From Chthoniobacteraceae bacterium (lineage in GTDB: Bacteria > Verrucomicrobiota > Verrucomicrobiia > Chthoniobacterales > Chthoniobacteraceae), in assembly GCA_037190965.1 (NCBI GenBank), contig JBBCKI010000033.1, forward strand, positions 1 through 17,375: DNA of 17,375 bases, given 5' to 3'. Position numbers and translations under genes: made by a program. The notes beneath the pieces were generated by a model, which was not told the origin of the DNA, did no database searches, and saw only the letters and a program-made list of their open reading frames with translations. Below are positions 2,833 through 11,151 of the stretch, piece after piece (the stretch's first letter is position 1; each line of letters begins with the position of its first letter).

Positions 2833-3501
2833 TCAGCCTGCCGGCTGTGTTTGCTCTGGAGATAACCTTCGGTAATACCGAAGCGCCTCGATGCGCGGGG
2901 CGAGTTCGTGCAGCGGGAAGAGCCCCCGTGAGGCTCCCCCGCCGGGGTCGCAGATCAGATAATCCCAGCCCTGCTTTCCTGCGATGACGACGAAGTGATT
3001 GTTCGTGGGCATTTTGATGCGGACGATCACCGGGTTGCCGCGCATCAGGTTCCAGTCAATCCGCGCAAGCGAGGGGGCGTCCTCGTAGGCTTTCTCCGCC
3101 ACACCGGGGGCGAACTCGGCGGCCTTCTCCCAGTAGATCCACCCTTCCGGGGTGTAGCCTTCATTGTCGGTGAGGAACCGGTTGAGCCGACCGGGGTCGA
3201 TGTCGATTCCATAACTGGCCATCACCATCGCCGCCGAGGCGACGGCGCATCCTTCCGCGTGAAGGGTGGCCTCCGTGGGGCCAAGAAGGTCATCTTTCCA
3301 GCAGGGATCCCCCTGGGCAAAAACCGGCACGGAGAGGGCAACCCGCTTGGGAAAATAAAGGCCGCCCCGGGAGGAAACCGGCCTTGGCCATAACCAGTCG
3401 AGCAGCAGCATAAGAACGAGGAGAAGCGGCGCCGCCCATAGCAAATGCCGGAAAACCTTCCGGGAAAAGAGGCTTTGGCATAGGGCTTGCGGGCGCGACA
3501 T
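2833..3501 (-). CDS. Peptidase C39-like (papain-fold) protein with N-terminal membrane anchor
   Basis: 222 aa. Hydrophobic N-terminal helix; 'FAQGDP.W' (oxyanion Gln), 'GCAVASAAMV' (Cys), 'HFVVIAG' (His), 'ICDPG' (Asp). Confidence 0.85.
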   Translation of the reverse strand: MSRPQALCQSLFSRKVFRHLLWAAPLLLVLMLLLDWLWPRPVSSRGGLYFPKRVALSVPVFAQGDPCWKDDLLGPTEATLHAEGCAVASAAMVMASYGIDIDPGRLNRFLTDNEGYTPEGWIYWEKAAEFAPGVAEKAYEDAPSLARIDWNLMRGNPVIVRIKMPTNNHFVVIAGKQGWDYLICDPGGGASRGLFPLHELAPRIEALRYYRRLSPEQTQPAG

Positions 3502-3680
3502 CGGGCGGCACTATGGCACAACCGGGAAAAAATAAAAGCGGCCTCCTGCCTCGAATGAGTCGATTTCCACTCGAAACCCGGAGGCAACGTTCGCCGGTCC
3601 CAAGATAGGATGAAAAACGAATTGCAGGGACCGTGTTTTCCCGGGGATAATCATTGATCATGCCTTCCTCCTTGTCTGAA

Positions 3681-3853
3681 TTAAACCCGAACTCCGACGT
3701 TGGTCGCGGCGAACCGACACAGTTTGTTGGTCGCGAGTGCCTTTCGTCAAAGACTCACCGTATCTGAAGATACGCTTCGCTTTTCCTCAATGCATCGCGA
3801 CTCAACCTCTTGCGCCAGTTCATCCGCTCCAACATCGGAGTTCGGGTTAAACC
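3681..3853. mobile_element. Fold-back palindromic element copy A, inserted in the 5' end of fabF
   Basis: Terminal inverted repeat AACCCGAACTCCGA(C/T)GTTGG (3684-3703) / CCAACATCGGAGTTCGGGTT (3829-3848). Apical hairpin CGTATC-TGAA-GATACG (3759-3774). Direct repeat TTAAACC at 3681 and 3847, 166 bp apart. Homologous to 10031-10202. Confidence 0.9.
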
Positions 3854-5076
3854 GCGTGGTCATCACGTCGGCGGGAATTGTGAGCCCGTTGGGGACGGGT
3901 TGGGAGGAAACGCTCGATGCCCTTCTTTGTGCGCGCGACTGCGTGGCGCCGGTGCGCCTTTTCGATGCAAGCCGCTGTCGCTCGCATACCGCCGGGCAGG
4001 TGGATGATGCCCGGCTGGAGAAGCAGAAGACGGCAGGGGACAGACATGCGGCGGATCGCCACCGCGCCAGCCGGATGATGATCGCCGCCGCGCGGGAGAC
4101 GTTTCTCGGGGATCCCGATTTCCGACCGGAGGCCATGGTGATCGGCACCACCAGCGGCGGCATGAGTTTCGGTGAAGCTTTCTATCGTTCCCTTGTGCTT
4201 CCTTCCGGGGGGGAGCGGGGGCGGCAGCCGGGTTGGCTGGCCAACTATGCCCCGCAAAAGGCGGTGCTCGACGCTCAGGAAGCGGTCGGGTGCGACCGGT
4301 TTGACGTGCCATGTCAGGTAATCGCCAACGCCTGTGCCTCCGGCACCAATGCCATCGGGCATGCCTGGAACCTGATCCGCAGGGGATTCCGCACGCGGGT
4401 GCTCGCAGGGGGGTATGACGCGATTTCGGAACTGGTCTTTGTCGGGTTCGATTCGTTGCAGGCTTCCACGCCGGAGAAATGTCGTCCTTTCGATAAAAGG
4501 CGCACCGGGTTGGCGCTCGGCGAGGGCGCGGCGCTCATGGCGCTGGAGTCTCTGGAGTCCGCACTGGAACGTGGCGCGCCGATTCTGGGCGAGGTGGTCG
4601 GCTACGGGCTCTCCACCGACAACCATCACCTCACGCAGCCGCATCCTTCGGGTATCGGGCCGTTGCAGGCGATGCGGCGCGCCCTGGAGTCGGCGGGGCT
4701 TGCACCGGGCGACATTGGCTACATCAACGCCCACGGAACGGCCACTCCCTTCAACGACGCCACCGAAGGGGCCGCCATCGAACAGCTTTTCGGGAAGAAC
4801 GGCGTCCCGGTCAGTTCCACCAAGTCGCTTATGGGGCACTCCCTCGGCGCGGCGGGAGCCATCGAGGCGGTCTTTTCGCTGATGGCCATCCGGCATGGGT
4901 TTCTACCGCCCAACGCCAATTATCAGGAGGCAGACCCGCAATGGGAACTCGACATTGTGGCCAACACGGCGCGTCATGCCCGGGTGCAGCGAGTGCTTTC
5001 CAATTCGTTCGGTTTCGGCGGGACCAACGCGAGCCTGATCCTGCAGGCAGCAGAGGCGAAAGGAGGGGCACAGTGA
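3790..5076 (+). CDS. fabF: Beta-ketoacyl-ACP synthase (FabF/KAS II family); start uncertain (ancestral ATG probably 3660, in-frame ATG 3790 lies within the repeat)
   Basis: 'RVVITSAGIVSPLG', catalytic Cys 'ANACASG', His 'YINAHGTAT', His 'STKSLMGHSLGAAG', C-terminal 'SNSFGFGGTNASL'. Confidence 0.92.
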   Translation: MHRDSTSCASSSAPTSEFGLNRVVITSAGIVSPLGTGWEETLDALLCARDCVAPVRLFDASRCRSHTAGQVDDARLEKQKTAGDRHAADRHRASRMMIAAARETFLGDPDFRPEAMVIGTTSGGMSFGEAFYRSLVLPSGGERGRQPGWLANYAPQKAVLDAQEAVGCDRFDVPCQVIANACASGTNAIGHAWNLIRRGFRTRVLAGGYDAISELVFVGFDSLQASTPEKCRPFDKRRTGLALGEGAALMALESLESALERGAPILGEVVGYGLSTDNHHLTQPHPSGIGPLQAMRRALESAGLAPGDIGYINAHGTATPFNDATEGAAIEQLFGKNGVPVSSTKSLMGHSLGAAGAIEAVFSLMAIRHGFLPPNANYQEADPQWELDIVANTARHARVQRVLSNSFGFGGTNASLILQAAEAKGGAQ

Positions 5077-6191
5077 GCCTTGTTATCCGTGGAATGGGCT
5101 GGGTGACCCCGCTTGGCTGCGAGATGGAACCGGTCTGGCAGCGGCTGATGGCGGGGGACCGCGCCACGGTGCAGGAGGCCGGGCCGACTCTACAAGGCCG
5201 GGTTCCTTTCTACATCCCGACGCCGTTGGCGATGGTCGAGTCCCTGTCGCGAACGCCGCGCATCCGGCGTTCCAGCGCGATCACCTATTTTAGCGTGGCC
5301 GCCGGGTTGGCCGCTTTGAGGGATTCCGGCTGTCCGCTCGCGGCCAATGGCGCGTTGCCGCCGGAGGAAGCGGGCCGCACGGCGGTGATCTTTGCCATTT
5401 GCAGCGGCGGGGTGAATTACACCCGCCGTTTTTACGAAAAGGTGGTTGCCGAGGGCCCGGCTTCCGCGAGCCCGCTCCTTTTCCCGGAGACCGTGTATAA
5501 TGCTCCCGCCAGCCATCTGGCCGCGGTGCTTGGGATCGACGGGATGAGCTACACGCTTGTGGGCGATGCCAGCATTGGTCTCACCGCGCTGGGGTTTGCG
5601 CAGGAGATTCTCGCCTCCGATCCGTCCGTGGAACGCTGCGTGGTGGTGGGGGCGGAGGAATGCGACTGGATTCTCTGGCAGGGGTACGCCGCCTGGCGGT
5701 TGCTTTCGAAAGAGCCGTGCGTTCGTCTTCATGCCAATCCCCCCGGGGGAATGTTGCTGGCCGAAGGAGCTGCCGCTCTGGTGGTCGGGCGGCAGAGCCA
5801 GGATCGAGCGGCAGGCGAGGTCCGGGTTCATTCGGCGTCCGCCTCCTATTTCCGCCGTTCCCGAGCGGGTGCGGCGTTGGAAAACGTGCTGGGGAGGCTC
5901 CCCGTGGGCGGAGCCGGGCTGGTGATCGGATCCGCCAACGGCACATGGGTGGACCGCGTGGAGGCGGGTATCCTTTCGACGCATTTGCCGCAGGCCGCCG
6001 TCGCTCATCCGAAGGCGGCGCTTGGCGAAAGCCTCGGCGCAAGCGGCTTGACGCAAGTAGTGATCGCCGCACTCGCCCTCAAGCGCAACGAAGCGCCGGG
6101 AGCCGAGCTGGGAACGCCGCTGGAAAAGGCGGCCGTGACGACGATCGGGCTTAACCAGCAGGCGGCGGGAGCGGTCCTTTGGGCAGAATAA
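5073..6191 (+). CDS. Ketosynthase-like protein lacking catalytic residues (chain-length-factor-like partner)
   Basis: GTG at 5073 overlaps the fabF TGA (GTGA) with AGGAGGGG just upstream. KS motifs 'VIRGMGWVTPLG', 'SPLLFPETVYNAPASHLA', 'LAEGAAALVV'. The triad regions read 'VGDASIG', 'SANGT' and 'LGESLGASG', without Cys/His/His. Confidence 0.85.
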   Translation: MSLVIRGMGWVTPLGCEMEPVWQRLMAGDRATVQEAGPTLQGRVPFYIPTPLAMVESLSRTPRIRRSSAITYFSVAAGLAALRDSGCPLAANGALPPEEAGRTAVIFAICSGGVNYTRRFYEKVVAEGPASASPLLFPETVYNAPASHLAAVLGIDGMSYTLVGDASIGLTALGFAQEILASDPSVERCVVVGAEECDWILWQGYAAWRLLSKEPCVRLHANPPGGMLLAEGAAALVVGRQSQDRAAGEVRVHSASASYFRRSRAGAALENVLGRLPVGGAGLVIGSANGTWVDRVEAGILSTHLPQAAVAHPKAALGESLGASGLTQVVIAALALKRNEAPGAELGTPLEKAAVTTIGLNQQAAGAVLWAE

Positions 6192-9218: not shown

Positions 9219-10010
9219 ATGCTAAAAATTCTGTTTCTGGGTGATGTCGTGGGTGAACCCGGCCGCCGAGCCGTGATTGAACTCATGCCCGTCCTGAAAA
9301 AAGAGTATGATCTCGATTTCATGATCGTCAACGGCGAGAACGCCGCGGGAGGGCGAGGGATTACCCCCAAGATCACCATCGACCTCCTTCGGGGTGGCGC
9401 TTCGGTCGTCACCACAGGGGATCACATCTGGGATCAGAAAGAAATTTTTGGCTACATCGACACCGAGCCTCGTCTGCTCCGACCCATCAACTACCCGCCC
9501 GGCACGCCGGGGCAGGGGAGCGTCGTGCTGGAAACGGCGAAGGGCAAAGTCGGCGTCATCAACGTCCAGGGCCGCACGTTCACGCTGCCGCATCTGGAAA
9601 ATCCGTTCCTCGCGCTCGACGCCGCCGTGGAAGAAATGCGCCGCGAGACATCGGTGATCTTTGTCGATGTGCATGCCGAGACCACCAGCGAAAAAATCGC
9701 GGTGGGCCGGTATCTGGACGGGCGTGTTTCGGCAGTTGTCGGAACCCATACCCACGTTCAGACCGCCGATGAGCAGATCTTCCCGGGCGGAACCGCTTTC
9801 CTCTGTGACGCCGGGATGTGCGGACCGCTGGAGTCAATTCTGGGCCGGGAGATCACGCCGATCATCAACCGTTTCCTGACCAACCTTCCCAACAGTTTCC
9901 CGGTGGCCAAGGGCCCGGTTGGGCTCAGCGGCGCGCTGGTGGAAATCGATCCCGCCACCGGCCGCGCGTTGCGAATCGAGCGGTTTGCGCGCCGGTATGA
10001 GAATGGTTAA
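9219..10010 (+). CDS. ymdB: YmdB/TIGR00282 family metallophosphoesterase
   Basis: 263 aa. 'ILFLGDVVGEPG', 'NGENAAGG.GIT', 'TTGDHIWD', 'LLRPINYP', 'DVHAETTSEK', 'VVGTHTHVQTADE'. Confidence 0.95.
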   Translation: MLKILFLGDVVGEPGRRAVIELMPVLKKEYDLDFMIVNGENAAGGRGITPKITIDLLRGGASVVTTGDHIWDQKEIFGYIDTEPRLLRPINYPPGTPGQGSVVLETAKGKVGVINVQGRTFTLPHLENPFLALDAAVEEMRRETSVIFVDVHAETTSEKIAVGRYLDGRVSAVVGTHTHVQTADEQIFPGGTAFLCDAGMCGPLESILGREITPIINRFLTNLPNSFPVAKGPVGLSGALVEIDPATGRALRIERFARRYENG

Positions 10011-10015
10011 GTCGC

Positions 10016-10036
10016 GTTAACGAATTCTTCGTTAAC
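10016..10036. repeat. Short perfect hairpin between convergent genes (possible terminator component)
   Basis: GTTAACGAA-TTC-TTCGTTAAC: 9-bp stem, 3-nt loop, 5 nt after the ymdB stop. Its right arm is shared with the left end of copy B. Confidence 0.5.
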
Positions 10037-10202
10037 CTAAAAGCGGCAATGGATCGGGGCGGTCTGACGCAAAATGCTAGCCGCGAGTGACTTTCGAAAA
10101 GACTCACCGTACCCATAGGGTACGCCTCGTCTTGTTCTCAAGTCATCTCGGCTCAGCATCTTGCGCCAGCTCATCCCCTCCCATCACCGCTTTTAGGTTA
10201 AC
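10031..10202. mobile_element. Fold-back palindromic element copy B (homologue of copy A)
   Basis: Perfect 16-bp terminal inverted repeat GTTAACCTAAAAGCGG / CCGCTTTTAGGTTAAC. Apical CGTACCC-ATA-GGGTACG (10108-10124). GTTAAC at 10031 and 10197, 166 bp apart. The right end contains the TAA stop of the methyltransferase gene. Confidence 0.9.
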
Positions 10203-11151
10203 AGGCCGAGGGCTTTTGTCCCTTTTGCCGCGCTCCCGAGTTTCGCTCCCAGAACACTCCGTCAGCATACCCCTGGATGGTGGGGTCCTGCCTTGCCATC
10301 TCCAGGCGTTTGAGGCCCAGCAGGCAGTAGTCGCGGTCGATCTCGATACCCACGTAACGGCGGTCCAGCTTTTTGCAGACCGCTGCCGTGGTGCCGGAGC
10401 CATGAAAGGGATCGAGCACTACGCTGCCGGGCGCGGTGCTGGCGAGCACCAGCTTTGCGACGAGCTTCTCGGGCTTTTGGGTAGGATGATCGGTGTTCTC
10501 CGGCATCGACCAGAATGGGACGGTGATGTCTGACCAGAAATTCGAAGCGCCGGTGAGGCGGAAGTCGCCGTTATCTTCCTCTGTCCAGTCTTTCGGTGCG
10601 CCATCCACCCGATAGGGGGCGACGACGCGCCGTTTCATCTTTACCGCGTCGGAGTGGAATTCGTAATCCGCGCTCATCGTGGCAAACCAGATGTCTTCGG
10701 AGCAGTTCTTCCAGTTGGCCTTTGCTCCCCGGCCTTTTTCGCGTTCCCAGGTGATCCGGTTGCGGACGGTGAAATGGCGGTTAAGAACGGGGAAGATCGA
10801 GGCCGAGGTGAGCCAGTCGCCGCAGAGATAGATGGAGGCAGTTGGCTTCAGGAGCCGCTTGAGCGGGATCAGCCAGGATTCCAGCCACTCCGCATAAAGT
10901 TCCGGGGTTTGTTGTCGGAACTTTCGCCCGTTGAAATCCTTGCCGAGGTTGTATGGCGGATCGGCGATGAGCAAATCGACAAATCCCGAAGGGAGCAACG
11001 GCAGCGCCTCGAGCAAATCCTGGTGCAGAAGCGAGTCGAGGAGGTCGCCCGGCGTGGCGGGCTGCGAGAGCGTGCGCAGGCACGGCTCAAACGCCACCCG
11101 ATCCTCCGGAGAGAGCGTGATCGTCCGGTTCCTGGGGGCGCGGATTTTCAT
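10198..11151 (-). CDS. Site-specific N6-adenine/N4-cytosine DNA methyltransferase, beta class, apparently orphan
   Basis: 317 aa. Catalytic motif IV 'VDLLIADPPYN' precedes 'HPTQKPEKLV' and SAM-binding motif I 'VLDPFHGSGTT..YVGIEID'. Confidence 0.93.
   Translation of the reverse strand: MKIRAPRNRTITLSPEDRVAFEPCLRTLSQPATPGDLLDSLLHQDLLEALPLLPSGFVDLLIADPPYNLGKDFNGRKFRQQTPELYAEWLESWLIPLKRLLKPTASIYLCGDWLTSASIFPVLNRHFTVRNRITWEREKGRGAKANWKNCSEDIWFATMSADYEFHSDAVKMKRRVVAPYRVDGAPKDWTEEDNGDFRLTGASNFWSDITVPFWSMPENTDHPTQKPEKLVAKLVLASTAPGSVVLDPFHGSGTTAAVCKKLDRRYVGIEIDRDYCLLGLKRLEMARQDPTIQGYADGVFWERNSGARQKGQKPSAC

Follow-up and report, generated by a model that had tools for sequence, protein, structure and literature searches.

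Translational coupling is a feature of RNA phage and of ribosomal-protein operons, where translation of an upstream ORF opens the structure that hides the next start. In translational bypassing, as in phage T4 gene 60 and the yeast-mitochondrial 'byp' inserts, the known spans are 27-55 nt. Small palindromic elements have a separate literature. According to passages of PMC10969869, the Rickettsia palindromic elements (RPEs; Ogata et al. 2000) are multicopy sequences of ~150-160 bp, some of which lie in frame in unrelated genes. The same passages group Correia/CREE (Neisseria), ERIC, BOX and Chunjie as small non-autonomous elements with terminal inverted repeats and target duplications; Correia elements are described there as having a TA duplication, carrying promoters and undergoing RNase III cleavage, and bacterial MITEs as being co-transcribed as hairpins that can disrupt coding sequence or alter expression (PMC10969869).

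Here we describe a palindromic element at the 5' end of a ketoacyl-synthase (KAS) gene in a Chthoniobacter-like soil MAG with a 4.2-Mb genome. The window, i.e. the whole stretch of DNA analysed, comprises 17,375 nt, and the features referred to below are as follows.

3660..3767, + strand: 35-codon leader ORF, made up of the putatively ancestral ATG, eight ancestral codons and the 5' half of the element, with its TGA in the apical loop
3681..3685, no strand: left copy of the target-site duplication TTAAA (repeat search, comparison among 21 full-length copies)
3686..3846, + strand: MITE-like near-perfect palindromic element, 161-bp core (fold, genome matches, copy alignment)
3686..3703, no strand: left terminal inverted repeat CCCGAACTCCGACGTTGG (inverted repeat, copy alignment)
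3715..3717, + strand: CGA codon in the KAS frame, in which T has become C at 3715, a change that no other copy in the genome shares
3759..3774, + strand: apical hairpin CGTATC-TGAA-GATACG (predicted fold), whose TGAA loop includes the leader stop TGA at 3765-3767
3790..3792, + strand: ATG 3790, the sole in-frame ATG upstream of the KAS core, with two adjacent private substitutions
3790..5076, + strand: KAS-II-like ketosynthase paralog from the proposed new start; ORF intact, conserved core from 3850
3829..3846, no strand: right terminal inverted repeat CCAACATCGGAGTTCGGG (inverted repeat, copy alignment)
3847..3851, no strand: right copy of the target-site duplication TTAAA (repeat search, comparison among 21 full-length copies)
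5073..6191, + strand: KAS-like partner gene, whose GTG overlaps the KAS stop (GTGA), with AGGAGG at 5061-5066
10036..10197, + strand: second, degenerate copy of the element, intergenic, between YmdB-like and DNA methylase genes

The insertion is bounded by a direct repeat, TTAAACC, at 3681 and 3847, with a spacing of 166 bp. The initial annotation held that removal of these 166 bp restores an in-frame N-terminus; a repeat search recovered the same repeat, and scripted removal yielded an in-frame KAS N-terminus from ATG 3660. The target duplication itself is the 5-bp TTAAA, and the extra 'CC' is the first two bases of the element, which match the flank by chance. Including the target duplication, the arms (3681-3703 and 3829-3851) form an inverted repeat of 23 nt that is 91% complementary, while the 18-nt element ends agree at 17 of 18 positions, their sequence being conserved from copy to copy. 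The predicted folding energy of RNA 3650-3880 is -84.7 kcal/mol; shuffled sequences average -62.4 (z -4.8), and 0 of 200 shuffles are as stable. The apex comprises a 6-bp stem with three G-C pairs, then CTTCGCTTTT; the T run is paired in the full fold, and the region contains two terminator-like sites versus 0.7 expected. Rfam covariance models run over 3400-4000 on both strands gave 0 matches at E <= 1.

Searches of the genome with the element returned 41 matches, 50 blastn HSPs and 73 merged non-overlapping nhmmer hits, and we put the family at about 60-70 loci; recurrence at 73 genome sites places the palindrome at the KAS locus far beyond chance. Identical direct 5-mers of the TTNAA type flank 10 of the 21 full-length copies, with one base different in five more. 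The duplicated central or outer base differs among copies and is equal on both sides of each (TTGAA, TTTAA, TTCAA, TTTGA, TTTAG), and in another genus (G011) two of five copies have identical duplications. Full copies are mostly 160-161 bp and contain no transposase gene, the largest possible internal ORF being a 55-codon frame. An alignment of 20 copies gives a hairpin with 46 pairs and 95.1% of cells paired, in which 18 pairs have changed on both sides, versus 3-5 in slid controls, and the observed covariation score was reached by 0 of 500 shuffles. Compensatory changes maintain the family hairpin. The family thereby has the features by which MITEs are recognized: terminal inverted repeats, a direct target duplication, multiple copies, small size and no transposase gene. 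Together, these comparisons show the KAS-locus element to be a non-autonomous MITE-like transposable element, which would have inserted at TTAAA, nine codons into the gene.

The search for a cognate autonomous IS in the element's own genome found no IS-length pair of element ends with a transposase-like ORF; IS-length end pairs with up to four mismatches were judged to be chance, and a 1554-bp parent candidate at C28 was rejected, since its 'ends' fall inside a 537-aa ORF. In genome G108, the 24 left and 22 right ends form pairs of 161 or 205 bp, a few ends being unpaired, and no pair has the length of an IS. IS1380 elements have CC ends and a 4-5 bp target duplication; their transposase family is absent from the own-genome search results, and MAGs often lack assembled IS copies. 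A plasmid collection searched with the element gave no match, and a literature search across titles and the opening lines of abstracts found no published account of such an element in Verrucomicrobia.

A typical copy adds 165 bp (160 + 5), or 55 codons, to the sequence it enters. In a pair of public AraC proteins, P0002 (347 aa) corresponds to P0006 (284 aa) with an exact insert of 55 residues and Phe-Asn duplicated; the two are 88% identical where aligned, and the insert is flanked by a cupin and an HTH domain. The same 55-residue peptide is also found in public LmbE, GH35 and XdhC/MobA proteins. We examined ten non-KAS copies for through-reading, nine of them in frames of at least 272 aa and one, C18, in a frame of 196 aa, and two of the ten have Pfam support. 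At C29, a 790-aa frame (781 aa in the public gene call) crosses a 160-bp copy with BPD_transp_1, an ABC permease domain, downstream, and at C47 a FAD_oxidored profile begins one residue past the element; a search for FAD-oxidoreductase orthologues that could confirm the old start of this gene gave a single distant match, at 41% identity. The C2 copy is probably in a leader, since the domain begins far downstream of the element. The frames at C17, C31, C66, C42, C73, C71 and C18 matched no Pfam family, and at C66 the real gene is on the opposite strand, ending 33 nt before the element. At least one stop-free frame crosses 17 of the 21 copies; by a rough estimate about six in ten would do so by chance, so stop-free frames alone are not strong evidence. 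The protein pair and the Pfam-supported frames show that the 160-bp form, in the right phase and orientation, is translated, as judged from conceptual translation, as part of the host protein. Sister copies, unlike the KAS copy, show insertion in frame: the host protein extends to either side of the element, and a homologue lacking it exists. The extra base of the 161-bp KAS copy falls in a CAAAG run near 3750, and the copies that are read in frame are 160 bp. The multicopy MITE-like family, its in-frame members and the KAS copy as a frame-breaking 161-bp variant are all points beyond the initial annotation.

The interrupted gene had been named fabF. Its 408-codon ORF is intact, and the protein has both ketoacyl-synthase domains (PF00109, about 75.5-75.7 bits; PF02801, 125 bits). 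Alignment to 9s5h_B places ACASG, HGTATP and GHSLGAAG opposite ACAAG, HGTGTP and GHTMGAAS, and we take the Cys, His and His of these motifs to be catalytic. FabF identity was rejected at 342.9 bits to TIGR03150 versus an equivalog cut-off of 493.75. Two other loci in the genome are better fabF-like candidates, scoring 210 and 145 bits to PF00109, and the KAS protein is only 38-39% identical to them. These scores identify the gene, at the level of profiles and alignments, as a conserved KAS paralog and not the housekeeping fabF; the earlier description of a discrete palindromic insertion in the 5' coding end stands. The KAS gene and its partner are adjacent in 19 of 21 relatives' loci, and synteny with an upstream C39-peptidase gene is retained in three same-genus genomes.

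The comparison with relatives fits ATG 3660 being the old KAS start. The initial annotation would have been contradicted by orthologues that lack the upstream N-terminus, whereas in 21 of the 28 related loci an ATG precedes the first strand by 4-16 codons; exact removal of the element thus gives back the type of N-terminus found in most orthologues. KAS genes without the element occur in the same genus (five genomes) and in the wider family, none showing the exact empty DNA site; at protein identities of at most 81% these relatives are too diverged to show it. Among genomes, where the best match is again at 81% protein identity, no strain-level relative has either the empty site or the same insertion, and scans for a close KAS locus reached at best 66% identity in metagenomes and 74% in named genomes. 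With the element in place, ATG 3660 opens the leader, in which the reading frame through the 5' half of the element is the one that is protein-coding in sister copies. The leader's length of 35 codons and its stop in the apical loop were correctly annotated, the TGA being the first three loop bases.

About 12 of the 161 positions (about 7.5%) are private to the KAS copy. TGA occupies 3715-3717 in 19 of the 20 other copies that cover this site in the copy alignments, and a first-base C is also seen in one G011 copy; in the KAS copy, with C in place of T at 3715, no stop interrupts the KAS frame from 3685 to the end of the element. Where the KAS copy has ATG 3790, sister copies have AGT, AAT or TGT. 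As annotated, this is the one ATG in frame ahead of the conserved domain. Its reported position within the paired 3' arm holds from G3792 onward; A3790 and U3791 are predicted to lie in an internal loop, with stable helices flanking the codon. ATG 3790 has no Shine-Dalgarno motif ahead of it, a lack it shares with most genes in the window. In simulations with 12 random substitutions, the stop loss and an in-frame ATG arise together with P = 0.022, a figure that is only suggestive, the test having been conceived after the ATG was seen. The stop loss is relevant only for TTG 3700 or for frameshifting; it is useless to a start at 3790, which leaves two private features without a common mechanism.

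Four explanations of the locus had been put forward, namely translational coupling, excision, +1 frameshifting and recent inactivation. Coupling to ATG 3790 is the best supported of these, the ATG being a private two-base novelty. We consider it about an even call that KAS continues to be produced, with initiation inside the element and assistance from translation of the 35-codon leader. The 161-bp copy breaks the frame, such that ATG 3660 opens the leader only and the KAS frame resumes within the element; KAS initiation would then take place inside or just after the element, most likely at the copy-specific ATG 3790. Starting here would replace the old tail of eight residues with a 20-residue tail rich in Ser, Thr and Ala. 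Ribosomes from the original initiation region would translate the leader and melt the 5' arm, and leader termination 23 nt upstream of ATG 3790 would free the 3' arm for re-initiation or fresh initiation. That the insertion has been recruited for coupling through a leader ORF, with a start codon that has newly evolved, is a tentative proposal, to which we give somewhat less than even credence. A search for RNA sequencing runs with the locus found none.

The gene may instead be dead or nearly so after a recent insertion and not yet decayed, the private ATG and stop loss being chance events, which we regard as unlikely. An insertion of 166 bp is not a multiple of three and breaks the frame, and passages of PMC10969869 treat inactivation of genes by MITE insertions as well documented. 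The presence of two better fabF-like genes would make fatty-acid synthesis independent of the KAS paralog, and the partner gene, with its own strong AGGAGG, could be expressed alone. Even after simulated random substitution at 7.5%, the KAS ORF stays stop-free in 9.6% of runs. Against this, at 267 conserved sites there are 12 differences in this genome versus 8 in the sister species, whereas neutral drift of 7.5% is predicted to add about 40 (32-49) changes. By this comparison the KAS gene shows no excess protein change and appears to be slowly evolving, which argues against a long-dead gene; the presumed catalytic motifs are also intact, the pairing with the partner gene is conserved across the relatives' loci, and the private ATG and private stop loss would have to coincide by chance. 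The recent inactivation initially proposed may still have taken place. A separate point against leader-assisted initiation is that the private substitutions may predate the insertion, in an unsampled source copy; were they older, a recent date for the insertion would be possible, and the constraint argument would no longer hold.

Coupling as such also faces the point that GTG 3856 or TTG 3700 could initiate uncoupled. Independent initiation at either codon, with the leader ORF and ATG 3790 irrelevant, seems to us rather improbable. The in-frame starts besides ATG 3790 are TTG 3700, 3724 and 3727 and GTG 3856. The last of these lies two codons into the conserved strand with GGAG (3838-3841) 14 nt upstream, and the alignment to solved KAS structures begins only at the RVVIT strand, which suggests that the N-terminal tail is dispensable; however, GTG 3856 is predicted to sit at the base of the long hairpin, paired in a small stem. 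Only a start ahead of 3715, such as TTG 3700, would benefit from the private loss of TGA there, but TTG 3700 lies within the terminal helix without an upstream purine-rich motif. Neither start explains the private ATG, which leader-assisted initiation would use.

We find a programmed +1 frameshift between 3685 and 3765, yielding KAS with an insert of ~55 residues like the in-frame sisters, very unlikely. Both frames are open and overlap over 3685-3764, the 5' half of the element is in the sister-translated frame and the 3' half in the KAS frame, and the stop loss at 3715 widens the possible shift window. However, inspection found no canonical +1 site, leaving the shift as initially proposed without a recognisable place to occur: the pre-stop codon AUC would be unable to re-pair at +1, the single CUU_U (3744-3747) has no adjacent Shine-Dalgarno-like stimulator or slow codon, and the region has no Rfam match.

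Precise excision in part of the population, whether from DNA, by slippage or a transposase acting between the TTAAA copies, or from RNA, would restore the gene and is likewise given very little weight here. Long palindromes between direct repeats are classically prone to precise excision; such repeats flank the element and its exact removal restores the frame. The locus was present in two of three DNA runs of one study in Logan, one of the three being possibly the source sample, and none of the contigs shows a joint skipping the element: 3000-3849 and 3822-5200 are covered without differences, a weak test in that rare variants are dropped from contigs, and the contig of the second run stops 12 nt into the element. 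The earlier suggestion of excision gains no support from these contigs, there is no intron or ribozyme family match, and ~7.5% private positions are unlike an element that comes and goes. That ribosomes from ATG 3660 bypass the whole 166-nt insert to yield the ancestral protein, the UUA AAC at both hairpin feet setting take-off and landing sites side by side for the peptidyl-tRNA to re-pair at the second, is extremely improbable.

The locus shares with bypassing a hairpin insert in coding sequence with identical end codons (UUA AAC, from the target duplication), and differs from it in its span of 166 nt, in having no stop after the take-off codon and in that no nascent-peptide signal is known here. 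If bypassing were nevertheless true, hairpin MITEs would owe to their target duplications that they are 'translationally invisible', and bacteria would have a counterpart to T4 gene 60 and byp. Compared with Correia elements, the duplication here is of 5 bp, and a consensus scan found no promoter-like site within the element. The family resembles the RPEs in palindrome size, copy number and in-frame copies that add a conserved peptide (here of 55 residues), a likeness in way of working and not in sequence family. Unlike the RPEs, it resides in a soil Verrucomicrobiota host and has 18-nt terminal inverted repeats and a 5-bp duplication of the TTNAA type; only 3 of its 21 full-length copies are in genes with Pfam support, and the KAS copy breaks the frame. 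These data suggest that translated palindromic selfish DNA of the Rickettsia type extends to free-living soil Verrucomicrobiota, with a filled/empty protein pair, and that the 55-residue insert may be a source of new protein segments. Gene callers would mis-start or split such genes, and this KAS gene would be mislabelled fabF. Leader-assisted initiation at ATG 3790 resembles the known coupling systems in that the leader ends 23 nt before a start embedded in an arm that pairs with the leader's own coding sequence. Unlike those systems, the proposed arrangement would be a transposon accident later improved by point mutations, a natural case in which a gene may survive a frame-breaking transposon in its first codons by reusing the old initiation region as a leader.

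The KAS-II-like ketosynthase paralog gene (KAS) carries a MITE-like palindrome, hereafter the element, in its 5' coding end. The relevant features of the window are:

3660–3767 (+), leader ORF of 35 codons, ATG 3660 to stop TGA 3765–3767
3681–3685 and 3847–3851, direct duplication TTAAA
3686–3846, element
3790–5076 (+), KAS from its proposed new start
5073–6191, KAS-like partner gene, start GTG 5073
9219–10010, YmdB-like gene
10036–10197, second copy of the element
10198–11151 (−), DNA methylase gene

The initial annotation described TTAAACC repeats at 3681 and 3847, spaced by 166 bp, and these are present; the direct duplication is real, but comprises TTAAA only, the trailing 'CC' being coincidental. 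The 23-nt arms (3681–3703 and 3829–3851) are 91% complementary, and RNA 3650–3880 is predicted to form the single long hairpin proposed (−84.7 kcal/mol, z −4.8, 0/200 shuffles as stable), with the tip CGTATC-TGAA-GATACG. ATG 3660 indeed opens the leader, whose stop falls within the tip loop, and a scripted 166-bp deletion yields the in-frame N-terminus said to follow from excision. ATG 3790 is, as claimed, the sole in-frame ATG ahead of the conserved core, further in-frame candidates being TTG 3700, 3724 and 3727 and GTG 3856. It had been placed in the paired 3' arm; the predicted fold pairs from G3792 on, but leaves A3790 and U3791 in an internal loop. The observation as a whole is confirmed, and its interpretation is supported in part. 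The apical stem-loop and the CTTCGCTTTT that follows it (together window 3759–3783) make up a weak terminator-like site within the leader, a possible transcription attenuator whenever the long hairpin fails to form.

The interrupted ORF contains both ketoacyl-synthase domains. Its label as fabF does not hold: it scores 342.9 bits against the fabF equivalog cut-off of 493.75, and two other loci in the genome, to which the window protein is 38–39% identical, are much better FabF candidates. Orthologues of KAS (55–81% identity) occur throughout the taxonomic family, with the same KAS-like partner gene directly 3' in 19 of the 21 loci examined, and the same divergent C39-like peptidase gene lies upstream in three same-genus genomes. 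In the window, the partner's start overlaps the KAS stop (TGA, 5074–5076), with AGGAGG at 5061–5066. This partner matches the N-terminal ketoacyl-synthase domain only and resembles a chain-length-factor partner in that, by eye, the active-site Cys motif is missing; no ACP gene was found near the pair. The Cys, His and His motifs of KAS align with those of a solved KAS structure, in an alignment that begins only at the RVVIT strand. An in-frame ATG stands 4–16 codons 5' of this strand, ahead of a tail rich in Pro/Ser/Ala/Thr, in 21 of 28 related loci whose contig covers the 5' end; six others offer nothing but TTG or GTG, and the last begins at the strand. As a putative N-terminus, ATG 3660 and its eight codons fit this pattern, and the five closest loci (5/5) have nothing in place of the element.

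The source genome (4.2 Mb in 73 contigs, the window being C33) gave 41 matches to the element, 50 blastn HSPs and 73 non-overlapping nhmmer hits. Copies aligned with their flanks share a core, CCCGAA...TTCGGG, mostly of 160–161 bp, bounded by 5-bp flanks. Of 21 full-length copies, 10 have identical 5-mers on the two sides and five more have 5-mers that differ by one base. The repeats are direct rather than inverted (TTGAA/TTGAA, TTTAA/TTTAA, TTCAA/TTCAA, TTTGA/TTTGA, TTTAG/TTTAG) and represent duplication of a TTNAA-like target site. Derivatives are shorter (46–125 bp) or longer (237–352 bp). Two composites in the source genome (C31:59979–60330, 352 bp; C68:43904–44140, 237 bp) hold additional DNA between recognisable element halves, and could have arisen by nested insertion or be larger relatives. 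The second window copy, between the YmdB-like and methylase genes, is degenerate (75% identity over 129 bp) and lacks a clean target duplication. No Rfam family matches the element region, and no autonomous partner was found. The distribution is patchy: among 151 genomes of the family, the element was found in six, namely the source genome, 3/3 of one other genus and 2/10 of another, and in 0/5 other genomes of the source genus. In G108, a better-assembled genome of another genus, ~24 nearly identical copies (161 bp and 205 bp) suggest recent activity. Sequencing runs containing the locus are labelled soil metagenome, and no RNA run is listed among them.

In an alignment of 20 copies, five of them from another genus, the hairpin comprises 46 pairs and is 95.1% paired, with both-sided changes at 18 pairs versus 3–5 in slid controls and a covariation score reached by 0/500 shuffles. 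Two subfamilies differ at many inner-stem positions with pairing kept (G-C in 10 copies versus C-G in 10; A-U in 10 versus G-C in 10), and most double changes split these subfamilies, representing few events, yet at many independent pairs. The hairpin is a selected feature of the element family, whether it is the DNA form, in transposition, or the RNA form that matters.

A 160-bp core plus its 5-bp duplication adds 165 bp, and thus 55 codons. On C29, a 160-bp copy is spanned by an open frame of 790 codons (432 before the copy, 304 after), with an ABC-permease domain downstream of the element; the public gene call is a 781-residue protein, insert included. The C47 copy has a short ATG-bearing N-terminal stretch ahead of it and the start of the FAD_oxidored profile behind it. 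The 55-residue peptide recurs at 80–91% identity in four more public predicted proteins, each from a different, unrelated family (AraC, LmbE, GH35 and XdhC/MobA). The AraC protein P0002 (347 aa) differs from P0006 (284 aa, 88% identical) by exactly the insert, which is bounded by a duplicated Phe-Asn; the two homologues are a filled/empty pair. In all of these cases the duplication reads Leu/Phe-Asn and the element Asn-Pro-Asn/Lys-Ser-Glu onward, and the KAS insertion matches them in both phase and orientation. Ten copies besides that in KAS are crossed by a long frame and were followed up: Pfam supports read-through at two (C29 and C47), a third probably sits in a leader, and the remaining seven lack a Pfam family, one of these lying directly after an opposite-strand gene. 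At locus L223 (G000:C17:22058–23023, source genome; no Pfam match), the element occupies codons 25–78, ahead of a prepilin-like Phe-Ser-Val-Leu-Glu-Leu-Thr-Val-Val, and its last codons plus the duplication give Gly-Phe where cleavage would be expected. Were it translated, this insert would fall in the cleaved-off leader peptide.

The KAS copy is of 161 bp, with one extra base in a CAAAG run near 3750 relative to the in-frame C29 and C47 copies. This base is common to the 161-type copies on C64 and C68, and so was probably present on arrival; with it, the element's 5' half follows the frame of ATG 3660 and its 3' half that of KAS. Independent contigs from the probable source run agree base-for-base with the window over 3000–3849 and 3822–5200, so the extra base is not an error of this one assembly, although both probably rest on one data set.

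In the favored reading, synthesis of the enzyme continues from a codon inside the element or immediately 3' of it, ATG 3790 being the best candidate. The leader would be translated from the old initiation region by ribosomes that must unwind the 5' arm, and termination 23 nt 5' of ATG 3790 would leave the 3' arm single-stranded. This is the coupling proposed in the initial annotation, and we give the coupled internal start an even chance. A Shine-Dalgarno motif is missing from most window genes, so the lack of one ahead of ATG 3790 carries little weight. About 12 of 161 positions are private to the KAS copy. A T-to-C change at 3715 turns TGA into CGA, leaving the KAS frame open across the entire element; 19 of 20 other copies covering the site have TGA, the remaining copy, from a genome of another genus (G011), also having C. 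Where sister copies have AGT, AAT or TGT, adjacent changes at 3791 and 3792 create the sole in-frame ATG. Simulating 12 random substitutions on a guessed ancestor of the copy gave probabilities of 0.13 for an open frame, 0.084 for a usable ATG and 0.022 for the two together, a rescue signal that is suggestive only, the test having been devised after the ATG was seen.

Over 267 conserved sites, KAS departs from the outgroup majority 12 times and its sister-species counterpart eight times; neutral drift matching the private divergence of the element would add ~40 (32–49) differences. If the private changes postdate the insertion, purifying selection would have acted on KAS ever since; had they instead come with a source copy that was not sampled, the insertion could be of recent date. 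A recent pseudogene is unlikely. Somewhat less likely again is initiation independent of the leader, at GTG 3856 or TTG 3700. A +1 frameshift, which would join the two halves of the frame, and excision, which would restore the N-terminus, are both highly improbable, and bypass from one duplicated UUA AAC to the other is more so still.

The KAS locus would be a testable example of gene survival after a frame-breaking insertion. A limited literature search found no described MITE of comparable coding use in the host phylum. The element is a MITE with a use as coding sequence like that of Rickettsia palindromic elements, which behave in this way (PMC10969869).
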